A stretch of DNA of 64,000 nucleotides from a bacterium (GTDB lineage Bacteria; Desulfobacterota; DSWW01). The notes beneath the pieces are model-generated. The model saw nothing but the letters and a program-made list of their open reading frames with translations, ran no database searches and was not told where the DNA came from. The position numbers and the translations under genes were made by a program. Positions 30,558-36,638 of the stretch are shown in pieces; position 1 is the first letter of the stretch; every line of letters starts with the position of its first letter. Location of the stretch: assembly GCA_040756235.1 (NCBI GenBank), contig JBFLZG010000122.1, positions 1 through 64,000 on the forward strand. Reading direction: 5' to 3'.

Positions 30558-30823
30558 CCGGCAGATCCTCCTCCATGGGTGTTCTATTGGATGGATGCAG
30601 CGGCTTGCGGACACGCTTCCGTATGCGTTGCGATGTTTCCTTGACGCAGCGGCCGCGGCTTTTCTATACTGCTCTTTCCTTTCATCTCCTTTTGTTTTCT
30701 ATTCTTTCTCTTGTTGCTATTCCCCAGTACTGGCGCGCCCGCCGCAAGGGAAACGCTCCGCGAGCGCGCTCCGATCACAGGGAGCTTTTTTGTCTTTTCC
30801 CCCAATCAGGAGCCGAACGGACG

Positions 30824-33800
30824 ATGGCAAACCGGCAGGACCCTTCTGGCAGAGGAGAGCGATCTGCGCGGGAAGGTAAGGTCAAGAAGAGAGCGCAGGG
30901 GCAGAATAAGGAAATGTTCGCCCTGCCCATGGAGCAAGGGCGGACGGCGCTGCTGGCATCGATCGTCGATTCCTCCGACGACGCCATCTTCGGCAAGACG
31001 CTCGAAGGGGTGATTACGAGCTGGAACCGCGCCGCTGAATCGATGTACGGGTACCTGGCGGAGGAAATGATCGGCAGACCGGCCTCGGTCCTCCTCCCTC
31101 CGGACCGGCCGCGCGAGATGGAAGAAATCCTGGATCAGATCCGCAAGGGCGCGCGCGTCGAGCATTACGAGACGCTGCGCCGGCGCAAGGACGGCACCCT
31201 GATCCATGTCTCGCTCACCGTTTCGCCGATCCACGACACGACAGACGGGCTCATTGGCGCCTCCTCGATTGCCAGGGACATCTCGGAAAGGAAACGCATC
31301 GATGAGCAGCTGCAGGCGACCTCCAAGTATGCCCGGAGCCTGATCGAGGCCAGTCTCGACCCGCTGGTCACGATCAGCCCGGAAGGGAAGATCACGGACG
31401 TCAACGAGGCCACGATCAAGGTCACGGGCAGAGACCGGGAACGGCTCATCGGCACGGACTTCTCCGACTACTTCACCGAGCCGGAAAATGCCCGTCGAGG
31501 CTATGAGCAGGTTTTCGCCAAGGGGTTTGTCACCGACTATCCGCTCACCATCCGCCACAGCGACGGGCGGCTCACGGAAGTGCTCTACAACGCCTCGGTG
31601 TACCGGGACGTGCAGGGCAACGTGCTGGGCGTGTTCGCCGCGGCGCGCGACGTGACGGCCCAGCGCCAGGCCGCGCAGTATGCCCGGAGCCTGATCGAGG
31701 CCAGTCTCGATCCGCTGCTCACCATCAACCCGGAAGGAAAGATCACGGACGTCAACGAGGCGACCGTGAAGGTGACCGGGGTGCCTCCCGACCAACTCAT
31801 CGGCACGGATTTTTCCGACTATTTCACCGAGCCCGACAGGGCCGGAGAGGGATACCGGCAAGTCTTCGAGAAAGGGTTTGTCACCGACTATCCGCTCACC
31901 ATCCGCCACCGTGACGGGCGGCTCACGGACGTGCTCTACAACGCCTCGGTGTACCGGGACGTGCAGGACGACGTGCTGGGGGTGTTTGCCGCGGCGCGCG
32001 ACGTGACGGCCCAGCGCCAGGCCGCGCAATATGCCCGGAGCCTGATCGAGGCGAGTCTCGATCCGCTGGTCACGATCAGCCCGGAAGGGAAGATCACGGA
32101 CGTGAACGAGGCCACCGTGAAGGTGACCGGGGTGCCTCGCGACAAGCTCATCGGGACCGACTTTTCCGACTATTTCACCGAGCCCGACAGGGCCGGAGAG
32201 GGGTACCGGCAAGTCTTCGAGAAAGGGTTTGTCACCGACTATCCGCTCACCATCCGCCACCGTGACGGGCGGCTCACGGACGTGCTCTACAACGCCTCGG
32301 TGTACCGGGACGTGCAGGACGACGTGCTGGGGGTGTTTGCCGCGGCGCGCGACGTGACGGCCCAGCGCCAGGCCGCGCAATATGCCCGGAGCCTGATCGA
32401 GGCGAGTCTCGATCCGCTGGTCACGATCAGCCCGGAAGGGAAGATCACGGACGTGAACGAGGCCACCGTGAAGGTGACCGGGGTGCCTCGTGACCCGCTG
32501 ATCGGCACCGACTTCTCCGACTATTTCACCGAGCCCGAGAAGGCCCGGGAAGGATACCGGCAGGTCTTCGAAAAAGGCTTTGTCACGGACTATGCCCTCA
32601 CCATCCGGCACCGGGACGGCAAGCTGGTCGACGTCCTCTACAACGCTTCGGTTTACAAGGATATCCGCGGCAACGTCCTGGGCGTCTTTGCCGCAGCCCG
32701 AGACGTGACCGAATCCAACCGCGTCATGCGCGAGTTCGCCGAGACCAAGAACTTCCTCGACAACATTCTGCAGAGCTCGACCAAGTACTCCATCATCGGC
32801 AAAGATCTCAACCGCCGCATCCTCTCCTGGAACGAGGGGGCACGGCGCAACTACGGCTACGAGGCGGAAGAGATTCTGGGCATCGACTCGAGCGTTCTGC
32901 ACACGCCGGAAGACATCCGCTCGGGAGCCGTGGATGCCATGCTCGCGATGGCCCACGAGAAGGGCCTGGCCGAGGCCGAGTTCACGCGCGTGCGCAAGGA
33001 CGGCTCGCGTTTTACCGCCAGCGTCGTGGTCACGCGCCGCAACCACGCTTCGGGCCGCCCCATCGGCTATCTGCTCATGAGCAACGACATCTCCGAGAAG
33101 AAACAAGCGGAGGAACAGCTCCGCCAGGCGTCGCAATACGCCCGCAGCCTGATCGAGGCGAGCCTCGACCCGCTGGTGACGATCAGCCCGCAAGGGAAGA
33201 TCACGGACGTCAACGAGGCCACCGTGAAGGTGACCGGGGTCCTGCGCGACAAGCTCATCGGCACGGACTTCTCCGACTACTTCACCGAGCCGGAAGAAGC
33301 GCGCGGCGGATACGAACAGGTCTTTGCCAGGGGGTTCGTCACCGATTATCCGCTCACCATCCGGCACAGGGACGGGCGGCTCCTGGATGTTCTGTACAAC
33401 GCCTCGGTGTACCGGGACATGCAAGACAATGTGCTGGGCGTATTCGCCGCGGCGCGCGACGTCACGGCCCAACGCCAGGCCGCACAGTATGCCCGCAGCC
33501 TGATCGAGGCGAGCCTCGATCCGCTGGTCACCATCAGCCCGCAAGGGAAGATCACGGACGTCAACGAGGCCACCGTGAAAGTGACCGGGGTGCCTCGCGA
33601 CCGGCTCATCGGCACCGATTTTTCCGACTACTTCACCGAGCCGGAAAACGCGCGCCGGGGATACGAGCAGGTTTTCGCCAAGGGGTTCGTCACCGACTAT
33701 CCCCTCACGATTCGCCATAAGGATGGGCGGCTCATGCCGGTGCTGTACAACGCCTCGGTGTACCGGGACGTGCAGGGCAATGTGCTGGGTGTCTTTGCCG

Positions 33801-34033
33801 CGGCGCGCGACGTCACGGCGCAGAAGGAGGCCGAGGCGAAGATCGCCGAGCAGCGCGCGCGCGAGGAGCAGCGCGCGCGCGAGCTCGAGCGCCTGGCGGA
33901 GCTGGAGAGGTTCCAAAAGCTGACCGTCGGACGCGAGCTCAAGATGATCGAGCTGAAGAAGGAGATCGAGGAGCTCAAGAGGGAGAACGAGCGGCTCCGC
34001 GATCCGAAATCCAACGGGAGGACGGAACCGTGA
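30824..34033 (+). CDS. Multi-PAS sensor protein (8 PAS domains, C-terminal coiled coil, no kinase domain), 1069 aa
   Basis: ATG 30824 is aa 84 of ORF 30575..34033 and is preceded by AGGAG. One divergent N-terminal PAS is followed by four tandem 117-aa PAS units, one divergent PAS and two more units. The C-terminus is EQRAREEQRARELERLAELERFQKLTVGRELKMIELKKEIEELKRENERLR. The TGA stop overlaps the GTG of the next gene (GTGA). Confidence 0.8.
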   Translation: MANRQDPSGRGERSAREGKVKKRAQGQNKEMFALPMEQGRTALLASIVDSSDDAIFGKTLEGVITSWNRAAESMYGYLAEEMIGRPASVLLPPDRPREMEEILDQIRKGARVEHYETLRRRKDGTLIHVSLTVSPIHDTTDGLIGASSIARDISERKRIDEQLQATSKYARSLIEASLDPLVTISPEGKITDVNEATIKVTGRDRERLIGTDFSDYFTEPENARRGYEQVFAKGFVTDYPLTIRHSDGRLTEVLYNASVYRDVQGNVLGVFAAARDVTAQRQAAQYARSLIEASLDPLLTINPEGKITDVNEATVKVTGVPPDQLIGTDFSDYFTEPDRAGEGYRQVFEKGFVTDYPLTIRHRDGRLTDVLYNASVYRDVQDDVLGVFAAARDVTAQRQAAQYARSLIEASLDPLVTISPEGKITDVNEATVKVTGVPRDKLIGTDFSDYFTEPDRAGEGYRQVFEKGFVTDYPLTIRHRDGRLTDVLYNASVYRDVQDDVLGVFAAARDVTAQRQAAQYARSLIEASLDPLVTISPEGKITDVNEATVKVTGVPRDPLIGTDFSDYFTEPEKAREGYRQVFEKGFVTDYALTIRHRDGKLVDVLYNASVYKDIRGNVLGVFAAARDVTESNRVMREFAETKNFLDNILQSSTKYSIIGKDLNRRILSWNEGARRNYGYEAEEILGIDSSVLHTPEDIRSGAVDAMLAMAHEKGLAEAEFTRVRKDGSRFTASVVVTRRNHASGRPIGYLLMSNDISEKKQAEEQLRQASQYARSLIEASLDPLVTISPQGKITDVNEATVKVTGVLRDKLIGTDFSDYFTEPEEARGGYEQVFARGFVTDYPLTIRHRDGRLLDVLYNASVYRDMQDNVLGVFAAARDVTAQRQAAQYARSLIEASLDPLVTISPQGKITDVNEATVKVTGVPRDRLIGTDFSDYFTEPENARRGYEQVFAKGFVTDYPLTIRHKDGRLMPVLYNASVYRDVQGNVLGVFAAARDVTAQKEAEAKIAEQRAREEQRARELERLAELERFQKLTVGRELKMIELKKEIEELKRENERLRDPKSNGRTEP
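31325..32728 (+). repeat. Intragenic tandem array: 4 x 351-bp near-identical PAS-coding units
   Basis: Units start near 31325, 31676, 32027 and 32378, each (A/S)QYARSLIEASLDPLVTISPEGKITDVNEAT...AAARDVTAQRQA. Long stretches of 100-250 bp are identical between neighbouring units in a mosaic pattern. The minus-strand shadow ORFs repeat at 351-bp spacing, confirming the period. Confidence 0.85.
33134..33835 (+). repeat. Intragenic tandem array: 2 further 351-bp PAS units of the same family
   Basis: Units begin near 33134 and 33485 (SQYARSLIEASLDPLVTISPQGKITDVNEAT...). They are separated from the first array by one divergent PAS (32729-33110). Confidence 0.8.
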
Positions 34034-34995
34034 CCTCGCGCACGGTCCAGGCGCGGAAGCGCATCGATCCCGAGGACTACACAAAGGCCGTTCTCAACAT
34101 CCTCGAGGACTTTGCCGGGGAGAAGGGGCGCTTCGAGGAGACGCAACGCGCGGTGCTCAACATTCTGGAAGACCTCGCCTCGGAAAAGGCCATGTTCGAA
34201 CAGACGCAGCGGGCCATGCTGAACCTGCTCGACGACTTCGGCATGGAGAGGGAGAAGACCCAAGCCGTAAACCTCGAGCTCAGGGACGCGATCGAATCGC
34301 TGCGCCGGGCGAAGGAGGCGGCCGACACGGCCAATCGCGAGCTCGAAGCGTTCGCCTATTCCGTTTCCCACGACCTGCGGGCGCCGCTGCGGAGCATCGC
34401 AGGCTTCGGACACATCCTGTATGAAGACTACTTCGATCGGCTCGACGAAGAGGCAAGAGACGGGCTCAGGCGGATCTTCGCCGCAACCGAAAAGATGGGG
34501 CGTCTGATCGATGATCTGCTGAACCTGTCGCGTGTCACGCGCGCCGAGATGAAGCGCGAACGCCTGAACCTGAGCGTCATGGTGCGCAAGATCGCCGAAG
34601 CCAAAAGGAGCGCCCAGCCGGAGCGCGCGGTCGAGCTCGTCATCGAAGACGGCCTGTTTGCCGAGGGCGACGATCATCTGCTGAATATCGTGCTCGAGAA
34701 CCTGCTGGAAAACGCCTGGAAATTCACCGGCCGGTGCCCGTGCGCGAAGATCCAGTTCGGATCCGCACAGAAGGACGGGGCGCTCGTGTTCTTCATCGAG
34801 GACAACGGCACCGGCTTCGACATGGCTTACTCGGAGAAGCTGTTCCAGCCGTTCCAGCGCCTCCATGCGATGAACGAGTTTCCGGGCACCGGCATCGGGC
34901 TGGCCACGGTCAAACGCATCATCGAACGCCATGGCGGCCGGGTGTGGATCGAAGGAGAGCTGGGAAAGGGAGCAACCGTGTACTTCGTACTATGA
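34030..34995 (+). CDS. Histidine kinase (HisKA + HATPase_c) with an N-terminal 3 x 21-aa repeat. No sensor or TM domain
   Basis: H-box is AYSVSHDLRAPLRSIAGF, N-box LENLLENAWKF, G1 IEDNGTGFD, G2 GTGIGLATVKRII. The GTG start overlaps the upstream stop. The N-terminus reads AVLNILEDFAGEKGRFEETQR / AVLNILEDLASEKAMFEQTQR / AMLNLLDDFGMEREKTQ. Confidence 0.8.
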   Translation: MTSRTVQARKRIDPEDYTKAVLNILEDFAGEKGRFEETQRAVLNILEDLASEKAMFEQTQRAMLNLLDDFGMEREKTQAVNLELRDAIESLRRAKEAADTANRELEAFAYSVSHDLRAPLRSIAGFGHILYEDYFDRLDEEARDGLRRIFAATEKMGRLIDDLLNLSRVTRAEMKRERLNLSVMVRKIAEAKRSAQPERAVELVIEDGLFAEGDDHLLNIVLENLLENAWKFTGRCPCAKIQFGSAQKDGALVFFIEDNGTGFDMAYSEKLFQPFQRLHAMNEFPGTGIGLATVKRIIERHGGRVWIEGELGKGATVYFVL

Positions 34996-35064: not shown

Positions 35065-35496
35065 ATGACGACCAAGCACATTCTTCTGGTAGAGGACAAC
35101 CCGGACGACGTGAAGCTGACCCTGAGGGCGCTCGAGAAGAGCCGCGTCGCCAACAGGGTGGACGTCGCCTCGGACGGCGTCGAGGCGCTGGATTATCTCT
35201 ACGGCACGGGCAAATTCGAAGGCCGCGACACGAGCGTCATGCCGCAGGTGATCCTGCTCGATCTCAAGATGCCGCGCATGGACGGGCTCGAGGTGCTGCG
35301 CCGCATACGTTCGGACGAGAGGACGAGGATCCTGCCCGTGGTCGTCCTGACCACGTCGAGCGAAGAGCGGGACCGGGTCGAGAGCTACAAGCTCGGCGCG
35401 AACAGCTACATCCGGAAGCCGGTGGACTTCAAGCAGTTTGCGGACTCGGTGCAGCAGCTGGGGCTCTACTGGCTGGTGTTGAACGAATCGCCTTGA
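35065..35496 (+). CDS. Single-domain response regulator (CheY-like receiver)
   Basis: ILLVEDNPDD carries the acidic pair. ILLDLKMPRMDG holds the phospho-acceptor Asp, and the YIRKP region has the conserved Lys. Confidence 0.8.
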   Translation: MTTKHILLVEDNPDDVKLTLRALEKSRVANRVDVASDGVEALDYLYGTGKFEGRDTSVMPQVILLDLKMPRMDGLEVLRRIRSDERTRILPVVVLTTSSEERDRVESYKLGANSYIRKPVDFKQFADSVQQLGLYWLVLNESP

Positions 35497-35555: not shown

Positions 35556-36638
35556 ATGAGCAAGCAGCTTCGAGTACTCATCGTCGAAGATTCCGAGGAC
35601 GACACCCTGCTGCTCCTTCGCGAGCTGCGGCAAGGCGGGTATGACCCCGTATTCGAGCGCGTCGAGAGGGCCTCGTCGATGAAGGAGGCGCTCGAGAGGA
35701 AGAGATGGGACATCATCGTATCGGACTACGTCCTTCCGAGCTTCAGCGGTCTCGCGGCGCTGGTTATTCTCAAGGAGAGCGGCCTCGACCTGCCCTTCAT
35801 CATGATATCGGGCAAGATCGGCGAGGAAATCGCGGTCGGCGCCATGAAGGCAGGGGCGCACGACTACCTCGCGAAAAGCAATCTGAAGAGACTGGTCCCC
35901 GCAGTGGAGCGTGAGCTGCGCGAGGCCGAAGTGCGGCGCGAGCGCAAGCGCGCCCGGGAGCAATTGAGGGAATCCGAGAAAAGGCTGAGAGACCTCTCGT
36001 CCAAGCTCCTGGTCGCTCAGGAGATCGAAAGGAGAAGAATCGCAAGGGCGCTGCATGACAGCATCACGGCCTCCCTGAGCGCCCTCAAGTTTCGCATCGA
36101 AAGGATGATGCGCGAGTGGCCAGGGCCCGCTCAGGCGCAGCTCCGCGACCTTGTTTCGAGCGTCAAGGACATGGTTGAAGAGACGCGCAGGATCATGTCG
36201 GACCTGCGTCCCTCCATCCTGGATGACCTGGGAATCGTGCCTGCCCTGAACTGGTTCTGCCGGGAATTCGAGAAGACCTATTCGGGCATTGCGATCCTGA
36301 AGCAGATCGATGTAGAGGAGACGGACGTTCCCGATCCCTTGAGGACCCCCATCTTTCGGATTATCCAGGAGGCATTGAACAACGTCGCCAAGCACAGCAA
36401 AGCCGTTTCGGTGAGGCTCTCCCTTTCGAAATCCGACAGAGGGATCGATTTGAGCATCCGGGACGACGGCCAGGGTTTTCATCTCGATCCGAAAGCCCCT
36501 CCGAAAGAGTCGAGGACCGGTCTGGGGCTGGTCGGCATGAAAGAGCGGGCCGAGCTTTCCGGAGGCTCGATGGTCATTCAGTCTGCGATCGGCGCCGGAA
36601 CGGCGGTCCTCGTTTCCTGGCCCGATCTCGCGAAGTAG
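35556..36638 (+). CDS. Receiver-domain-fused HisKA_3-type sensor kinase (NarX/DesK/LiaS class)
   Basis: ATG 35556 is aa 275 of ORF 34734..36638. The N-terminal receiver is VLIVEDSEDD...IIVSDYVLP...LAKS. The H-box ARALHDSITASLSAL is HisKA_3. The ATPase domain includes QEALNNVAKHS and GLGLVGMKERAEL. Confidence 0.75.
   Translation: MSKQLRVLIVEDSEDDTLLLLRELRQGGYDPVFERVERASSMKEALERKRWDIIVSDYVLPSFSGLAALVILKESGLDLPFIMISGKIGEEIAVGAMKAGAHDYLAKSNLKRLVPAVERELREAEVRRERKRAREQLRESEKRLRDLSSKLLVAQEIERRRIARALHDSITASLSALKFRIERMMREWPGPAQAQLRDLVSSVKDMVEETRRIMSDLRPSILDDLGIVPALNWFCREFEKTYSGIAILKQIDVEETDVPDPLRTPIFRIIQEALNNVAKHSKAVSVRLSLSKSDRGIDLSIRDDGQGFHLDPKAPPKESRTGLGLVGMKERAELSGGSMVIQSAIGAGTAVLVSWPDLAK

Follow-up and report, generated by a model that had tools for sequence, protein, structure and literature searches.

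Does a row of similar PAS domains in a bacterial sensor protein record a burst of recent amplification, or is it an old array in which single units are now and then exchanged, and how would such a protein pass on a signal when it carries no output domain? Both questions are raised by a multi-PAS gene of a bacterium in the Desulfobacterota (DSWW01). The gene lies on contig JBFLZG010000122.1 of assembly GCA_040756235.1, of which the first 64,000 nucleotides were analysed (the window), and it encodes eight PAS stretches, six of which are copies of one unit (U1 to U6). A preliminary description of the locus, made from the letters of the DNA, had seen in it a recently amplified array of possibly variable length. 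The best explanation of the evidence gathered here is probably a different one, namely an old, inherited array that contains one recent crossover unit and belongs to a two-piece cytoplasmic sensor kinase. The picture is thereby corrected from a freshly amplified, hypervariable locus to an inherited multi-PAS array with a single recent crossover product, for which the kinase encoded by the next gene would be the output.

Identity among the units and the mosaic of U3

The encoded protein consists, in order, of an N-terminal PAS domain, four units, a middle PAS domain, two further units and a coiled-coil tail. That six of the eight PAS domains are in-frame units of 117 amino acids (351 bp) was borne out by the repeat coordinates, with four units in 31307-32710 and two in 33116-33817, and Tandem Repeats Finder (TRF) scores of 2060 and 1093 place the repetition far beyond chance. 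The units had also been called near-identical, which a per-unit identity matrix contradicts: DNA identity is only 77.2-86.9% in 14 of the 15 unit pairs and reaches 95.7% in U2/U3 only, while amino-acid identity across the pairs is 79-97%. Exact tracts of at least 100 bp are found in two pairs only, U2/U3 (156 bp, or 198 bp if one mismatch is allowed) and U3/U4 (131 bp), and the longest exact tract in every remaining pair is 47 bp or less. In a Sawyer-type permutation test over the 123 polymorphic sites of the six units, globally significant tracts were likewise confined to U2/U3 (p = 0.0014) and U3/U4 (p = 0.021). The sharing of different stretches by different pairs, as described earlier, is therefore a property of the U2-U3-U4 trio and not of the rest of the array. 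The proposal that all six units were recently amplified and are kept near-identical by ongoing gene conversion, in the manner of a contingency locus, can draw on the 95.7% identity of U2/U3 and on the exact tracts of 131-156 bp common to different pairs, but 14 of 15 pairs at 77-87%, with no other exact tract above 47 bp and no other significant tract, speak against it.

Unit U3 itself is a mosaic of its two neighbours. Its nucleotides 1-131 equal those of U4 exactly, and its nucleotides 154-351 equal those of U2 save for nucleotide 195. Between these parts lies a junction zone of 22 nucleotides (132-153) in which U2-like and U4-like sites are mixed, and three sites, at unit nucleotides 136, 147 and 195, are private to U3, differing from both U2 and U4. 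The arrangement includes a 287-bp exact direct repeat (Table 1), which offers a substrate for further unequal recombination and can also mislead assembly from short reads. The 5' part of U3 thus comes from the downstream neighbour and its 3' part from the upstream neighbour. A misaligned exchange between two adjacent units A and B yields the order A, B-5'/A-3' hybrid, B, and the polarity of this product matches U2-U3-U4. A single unequal crossover between adjacent units is the simplest explanation of the mosaic; this recent event would have added one unit (U3) and left the 287-bp exact repeat. Within the window, U3 appears to be the one recent recombination event, with the rest of the array not recent.

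The same unit could have arisen by two gene conversions, of its 5' part by U4 and of its 3' part by U2, in a four-unit array to which no unit was added. This possibility was weighed against orthologous loci from metagenome contigs (L001, L002, L005, L006 and L007), the complete genome of Geomonas sp. RF6 (L008) and a metagenome-assembled genome (MAG) of Syntrophobacter sp. SbD1 (L009). Three of them, L001, L002 and L009, have four plus two units as the window does, which tells against an added unit. Non-adjacent conversion is also seen in the family, with the second and fifth units of L002 at 95% identity across the middle PAS domain, and the alternation of U2-like and U4-like sites over nucleotides 131-153 of U3 is a further point for conversion. 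However, conversion calls for two events with abutting ends in place of a single crossover, a duplication would leave precisely the polarity that is seen, and L007, which has three plus two units, ranks with the nearest relatives over the unique regions (it is the best match to the window in the middle PAS domain and tail, and the third for the N-terminal segment). Double conversion is thus unlikely, although the preference for duplication is provisional and the U3 event carries no date, the nearest relatives found being at about 70-86% protein identity.

An origin of the U2-U3-U4 region in mis-assembly, either by the collapse of extra U3-like copies or by the joining of strain variants into a chimeric unit, was also considered. 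The kinase core encoded next to the array has the same sequence as MEW6443169.1 (annotated as 'MAG: ATP-binding protein [bacterium]'), which indicates that the window comes from a MAG, and the 287-bp exact repeat, with its spacing of 351 bp, exceeds typical k-mers and many read lengths, a point that bears against a genuine crossover unit. In addition, some public homologues are damaged, as in P0014, which includes an adapter, and in P0395 and P0394, which include frameshifted stretches. Set against this are the intact reading frame across the array, a layout of four plus two units equal to that of L001, L002 and L009, and the variants private to U3 (nucleotides 136, 147 and 195), which imply reads specific to U3. 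Furthermore, the same kind of array is present in the closed genome of Geomonas sp. RF6. Mis-assembly of the trio is accordingly judged very unlikely, although exact repeats of this kind are classic sites of copy-number collapse and the count of U3-like units is therefore provisional. The damage in P0014 is itself plain to see: at residues ~424-444 the peptide FFFLMIRRPPRSTLFPYTTLFRS stands inside a PAS unit and is read as the translation of an Illumina adapter, an assembly artefact that calls for caution with such arrays when they are assembled from short reads.

Table 1. Features of the multi-PAS gene and the genes downstream of it, in window coordinates.
Feature	Coordinates	Strand	Remarks
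Sigma-70-like promoter match	30641..30670	+	TTGACG, 18-nt spacer, TATACT; 10/12 hexamer positions; consensus match only
Multi-PAS gene (~1069 aa)	30824..34033	+	Eight PAS stretches; start codon uncertain
N-terminal PAS, type distinct from units	30944..31306	+	LLASIVDSSDDAI...; PF00989 over residues 44-153
Unit U1 (117 aa)	31307..31657	+	Positional orthologue of first unit in related genes
Unit U2	31658..32008	+	Donor of U3 3' part
287-bp exact direct repeat, copy 1	31853..32139	+	U2 3' part and U3 5' part
Unit U3	32009..32359	+	Chimera of U4 5' part and U2 3' part
287-bp exact direct repeat, copy 2	32204..32490	+	U3 3' part and U4 5' part
Unit U4	32360..32710	+	Donor of U3 5' part; most diverged unit; positional orthologue of pre-middle unit
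Middle PAS, third type (135 aa)	32711..33115	+	NFLDNILQSSTKYSIIGKDL...; PAS_9, PAS, PAS_4; splits array between U4 and U5
Unit U5	33116..33466	+	
Unit U6	33467..33817	+	Positional orthologue of last unit in related genes
C-terminal tail (~70 aa)	33818..34033	+	Charged, heptad-like repeats (...ELERFQKLTVGRELKMIELKKEIEEL...); kept in kinase-less family members
Stand-alone histidine kinase core (321 aa)	34030..34995	+	HisKA and HATPase_c; GTG start overlaps PAS-gene TGA (GTGA, 4 bp)
Three 21-aa (three-heptad) repeats	34084..34272	+	RAxLNILEDFxxEKxxFExTQ; kinase N-terminus
Single-domain response regulator	35065..35496	+	Receiver only; position kept in orthologous loci
Receiver, HisKA_3 and HATPase_c hybrid	35556..36638	+	Fourth gene of the module

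Age of the array and turnover of its units

A neighbour-joining tree of units, built from p-distances and carrying no support values, groups the first, the last and the pre-middle units each across genomes, including U1, U6 and U4 of the window, while interior units cluster within their own genome. When L001 is compared with L009 and L005, units at the same position have DNA identities of 0.84-0.93, against 0.71-0.85 for other unit pairs. The best cross-genome match of U1 in the window is the first unit of L007 (0.81). The same-position orthologues in the unit tree, together with the identity matrices, indicate that the array is older than the lineages compared and is normally passed on unit by unit, with turnover mostly in the interior. 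Interior units turn over by unequal recombination and gene conversion.

The similarity that remains among the units was compared with the expectation from codon usage. With the proteins held fixed and codons redrawn from local usage, an identity of 71-76% is expected, in comparison to the 77-87% observed, which lies 3-6 standard deviations (SD) over this baseline. The silent sites of the units are therefore not fully randomised, yet they are well diverged, and the DNA similarity largely reflects strong purifying selection on this PAS type together with a high G+C content at third codon positions (GC3). The GC3 of the units is 0.86 in the window (31307-33817), 0.89 in Geomonas and 0.66-0.73 in the other orthologues; the amino-acid sequence of the unit is maintained over this wide range of base composition.

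These comparisons bear directly on the idea of a recently amplified array. Each unit of the window has its closest DNA match in another unit of the window and not in an orthologue, identity lies above the codon-usage baseline in all pairs, and copy-number variants occur inside clusters of at least 90% identity, as a recent expansion would lead one to expect. However, identity within the genome is inflated by the GC3 of the window (0.86, against ~0.72 in orthologues), U1, U4 and U6 have same-position orthologues, and the closer orthologues inherit their arrays unit by unit, with same-position values of 0.84-0.93. Identical arrays have moreover been recovered from 9, 12 and 24 contigs of different samples. 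Recent amplification of the whole array is thus highly improbable, and what survives of the earlier claim of recent recombination is the single event at U3, given the same-position orthologues elsewhere in the array.

Several points nonetheless weigh against the reading of an inherited array with one crossover unit. Only U1, U4 and U6 of the window have recognisable same-position orthologues, and the age estimate derives partly from a p-distance neighbour-joining tree to which no support values are attached. Additionally, the excess of 3-6 SD over the codon-usage baseline applies to all unit pairs, which would allow for some low-level homogenisation across the whole array.

The number of units differs among relatives. 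Four plus two units are present in the window, L001, L002 and L009, four plus one in L005, five plus two in L006, three plus two in L007 and seven plus one in Geomonas, giving orthologue arrays of 5 to 8 units. Complete proteins within clusters of at least 90% identity also differ, as 4+2 versus 4+1, as 3+2, 4+2 and 5+2, and as 5+1 versus 4+1, although these variants come from short-read metagenome assemblies, some visibly damaged, and part of the variation could be artefact. The earlier expectation of a variable domain number is upheld by these counts, but not its contingency-like character, as identical arrays recur in 9, 12 and 24 independent metagenome contigs from different samples, which argues against rapid switching. 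In addition, the signature of a contingency locus, a hypermutable simple-sequence repeat of about 1-9 bp, is not that of this array, in which each unit measures 351 bp and most identities between units are 77-87%. Whole-unit gain and loss is thus recurrent on an evolutionary time scale, and rapid switching is without support.

Further traces of turnover are seen in individual relatives. Two non-adjacent units of L002 (P0026), u2 and u5, which lie on either side of the middle PAS domain, share 95% DNA identity while neighbouring units share 72-84%, a pattern that looks like gene conversion across the interruption. In L006 (P0013), identities alternate along the array (u1/u3 0.85, u2/u4 0.91 and u3/u5 0.89), which suggests duplication of a block of two units by an unequal exchange with an offset of two. 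Of P0424 (782 aa) and P0426 (1033 aa), which belong to the same cluster of at least 90% identity, one has a single copy of the N-terminal PAS type (LLASIVNS.DDAI...) and the other three in tandem, and from this difference it follows that other PAS types of the family also duplicate in tandem.

A comparable mode of variation is known from surface proteins. The alpha C protein of group B Streptococcus and the M proteins have, like the present array, in-frame units of a few hundred base pairs, hybrid units with crossover polarity and copy-number differences between close relatives. The arrays of the alpha C and M proteins are about 100% identical in DNA, encode surface antigens and vary at observable frequency. 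In the present case, by contrast, most units are 77-87% identical and inherited by position, and the protein is a cytoplasmic signalling protein.

The kinase partner and the conserved gene module

The earlier remark that the protein has no output domain at all holds for this polypeptide, but the next gene, which overlaps it by 4 bp, encodes HisKA and HATPase_c. A Pfam search of the PAS protein detects eight PAS domains, and no further family passes its curated cut-off; with neither a HisKA nor a HATPase_c match, the protein is not a sensor histidine kinase of the single-polypeptide kind. The kinase core, in turn, is without a sensor domain according to Pfam, and its 120 best homologues are all stand-alone proteins of 259-502 amino acids. 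Among the best 120 homologues of the PAS protein, most either lack a kinase and end in a coiled-coil tail or have the array fused to a kinase module. Conserved adjacency with overlap and fusion elsewhere, two of the features expected of a split sensor kinase, are both found.

The order of genes around the array is conserved across distant taxa. The pairing of PAS gene and kinase gene is kept in all eight loci examined, and the arrangement of PAS array, kinase and first receiver is kept in Syntrophobacter-like MAGs and in Geomonas. The full four-gene order is present in L001, L002-L004, L005, L007 and L008. The contig of L006 ends inside the kinase gene, so that the overlap and the head of the kinase are seen, and the inspection of L009 covered the array, the overlap and the kinase. 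The overlap measures 4 bp in the window (GTGA) and in six orthologous loci (ATGA), and the genes of Geomonas sp. RF6, which follow each other in this order as well, are annotated with an overlap of 40 bp. By kinase, the closest genome is that of Syntrophobacter sp. SbD1 (70% identity). The fourth gene always encodes a receiver-kinase hybrid, but of a type that differs among loci, with receiver-HisKA-HATPase proteins in L001, L002-L004 and L005 and larger hybrids in L007 and L008; the downstream partner has thus been exchanged while the first three genes stayed. In the window, the HisKA_3 domain of this gene is the NarX/UhpB-type dimerisation domain.

Both proteins carry a helical extension, the PAS protein at its C-terminus and the kinase at its N-terminus. 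The tail of the PAS protein, which has no significant Pfam family match, is predicted to be a docking helix for the kinase; orthologous PAS genes end in a ...GRELKMIELKKEIEEL tail, and the partner kinases at those loci have 3-5 of the 21-residue repeats. Among kinase homologues more generally, the repeat is present in 1-10 copies, with a spacing of exactly 21 residues in 320 of 360 cases, and the lengths of homologous kinases step by 21 amino acids (304, 325, 346, 367 and 388). The 21-residue repeats are a second array of variable copy number, in the partner protein, with a period that keeps the heptad register; from coiled-coil geometry, the gain or loss of a repeat would leave the register of the coiled coil intact. 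In the part of the PAS gene that encodes the coiled-coil tail, 18 bp are duplicated perfectly in tandem at 33848-33883 (two copies of GAGCAGCGCGCGCGCGAG), so that EQRARE stands twice in the protein, and the homologues P0071 and P0108 are without this segment. The short tandem repeats that TRF reports for the region are two-copy repeats of 16-21 bp in the tail.

In combination, these features argue for one sensor kinase formed by two polypeptides, the PAS-only sensor of the first gene and the kinase core of the second. The 4-bp overlap would couple translation of the PAS protein and the kinase and so keep their amounts matched, the tail and the heptad repeats of the kinase would form a coiled-coil complex, and signals from the PAS array would govern autophosphorylation of the kinase and phosphotransfer to the two receiver domains. 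A PAS protein that works independently of the neighbouring kinase, for example by buffering a ligand, serving as a scaffold or regulating other partners, is a competing possibility. The protein is without an output domain, many PAS-only proteins exist, and its pairing with the kinase is drawn from sequence context. Against independence, the gene pair is kept across distant taxa with a 4-bp overlap in seven of eight loci (40 bp annotated in L008), the kinase core lacks a sensor domain and all of its 120 best homologues are stand-alone proteins, and in other lineages arrays of this PAS unit occur fused to a kinase of this type. An independent PAS protein is accordingly quite unlikely. The case for coupling is nonetheless weakened in two respects, as it is inferred from gene order, overlap and fusions, and as the 4-bp overlap was not found by motif scan in the more distant loci L090 and L091.

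These more distant loci came from scans for further relatives. A scan of genome contigs with peptide patterns yielded one true orthologue among 80 loci. The patterns mostly matched generic HisKA kinases. A scan of metagenome contigs (80 loci) yielded six with the tail motif and/or the 21-residue kinase repeats (L090-L093, L095 and L109), two of which contain a complete array and kinase. A relation between the two arrays, in which the number of PAS units would track the number of kinase repeats, was considered (Spearman rho 0.83, p = 0.011, eight loci) and rejected; L090, with 3 units and 4 repeats, and L091, with 3 units and 6 repeats, lie off the correlation and were not included in the rho. 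Fusion of the PAS protein with the kinase by a programmed -1 frameshift was also rejected, ordinary translational coupling through the 4-bp overlap being preferred. Upstream of the kinase start, the kinase frame stays open for 309 nucleotides in the window, for 12 nucleotides in L002 and L005 and for 39-162 nucleotides in others, and a fusion by frameshifting is unlikely because the frame is closed 12 nucleotides upstream of the start in L002 and L005. When the junction was read by eye, without a formal scan, no canonical slippery heptamer was seen.

It may tentatively be suggested that the family members that lack a kinase and carry the tail constitute an unrecognised class of modular two-piece sensor kinase. 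If so, a rod of near-invariant PAS units would dock via a coiled coil onto a sensor-less kinase, and unequal recombination in frame would adjust the lengths of both arms, in steps of 117-residue units and 21-residue repeats. Sensitivity, cooperativity or geometry would then depend on the number of copies. With its two arms that vary in length independently, the split form would offer a convenient natural system for studying the influence of PAS copy number and linker length on the control of a kinase. It is a useful lead for signal-transduction biochemists, and it does not challenge current understanding.

The PAS unit, its family and known systems

The unit belongs to a large family. With U3 as the query, phmmer returned 3,469 proteins at E <= 1e-30 from 1.84 billion cluster representatives, which is a lower bound, so that at least 3,469 cluster representatives carry the unit. 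Many of the matches have 2-10 matched stretches, and many phyla are represented. The unit is unusually conserved across phyla: when the 120 best proteins are broken down into their 592 unique units, 69 of the 117 positions are conserved at 90% or more, and variation is mostly located in the linker, the loop after the TG motif, the F-alpha helix and two hairpins. NCBIfam assigns the PAS protein only the generic name 'PAS domain S-box protein', and a full-text literature search on tandem or recombining PAS domains found no paper on this PAS-unit family. The family is thus very large and, as far as could be found, undescribed, and the locus in the window is a new, ordinary member of it.

The assignment to the PAS fold is secure at the level of profiles. 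PF00989, PF13426 and PF08448 each match eight stretches of the protein well above their cut-offs, TIGR00229 has 8 matches, and a single unit of 117 residues scores 50.1 bits against a PAS profile cut-off of 22.6. An AlphaFold2 model of the U3-U4 di-unit contains two canonical PAS folds with the expected order of PAS secondary-structure elements and a predicted local distance difference test (pLDDT) score of ~85 per domain; the helix that links them is of low confidence (predicted template modelling score, pTM, 0.49). Foldseek with this model finds generic tandem-PAS proteins only, with E down to 7e-16 and at 20% identity or less, and a sequence search of the PDB with the unit gave nothing better than E = 0.029. 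The N-terminal PAS domain is kept at the same position in P0025, P0026, P0037, P0013, P0030 and P0009, as is the middle PAS domain in the orthologues.

The FVTDY and YNASVY motifs had been taken as hints of a cofactor pocket. In the model, the motifs lie on the G and H strands. Cysteine is absent from all six units, which therefore have neither the adduct cysteine of LOV domains (GXNCRFLQ) nor the CXXCH of c-type haem, as in GSU0582 and GSU0935 of Geobacter. Histidine is absent from the F-alpha segment (unit residues 59-72) in all units, so that the proximal histidine of haem b of the FixL/DosP type is lacking; the single histidine of the unit sits in the TIRH strand. No cofactor can be proposed from the sequence search, the fold search or the LOV, FixL and c-haem signatures.

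The closest known arrangement is that of multi-PAS kinases in which array and kinase are fused (P0105, P0112 of Aliikangiella sp., P0022 and P0050). These have the same 117-residue unit as the present array, in 5-10 tandem copies, and their kinase module is 41-42% identical to the kinase core of the window over the whole DHp and CA (E ~1e-55), with the same H-box, E(A/S)F(S/A)YSVSHDLRAPLR. In the fused kinases, the last unit joins DHp directly within one polypeptide, whereas the window has separate genes with a 4-bp overlap. Furthermore, unlike in the fused kinases, each half carries a helical extension here, namely the ~70-residue tail of the sensor and the 21-residue repeats of the kinase.

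More remote similarities concern the fold and the generic signalling domains. The best Foldseek matches to the predicted U3-U4 structure are E. coli DosP, Rhodobacter PpsR, Brucella LOV-PAS-HK and Methylococcus MmoS (E 1e-16 to 1e-11), which have the same fold and the same PAS-helix-PAS layout. These proteins have two or three PAS domains, unlike one another, whose cofactors (haem, flavin mononucleotide or flavin adenine dinucleotide) or partners are known, whereas the present protein has six copies of one unit. The best NCBIfam match of the kinase core is Leptospira LvrA (NF047465; 211.7 bits against a cut-off of 1200), and that of the receiver part of the fourth gene is Leptospira LvrB (NF047466; 99.5 bits against a cut-off of 500). 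Membership in the LvrA/LvrB families was rejected, as the scores are far below the cut-offs and only the generic kinase and receiver portions align.

Two observations concern the limits of the PAS gene itself. Its reading frame is open from 30575 and ends at 34033 on the plus strand, with ATG candidates at 30575 and 30824; the promoter-like match upstream (Table 1) favours a start at the ATG of 30824 or later over that of 30575. On the minus strand, an open reading frame of 1092 amino acids (30806-34084) lies opposite the whole PAS gene and is taken as a shadow reading frame of a GC-rich, repeat-rich gene.

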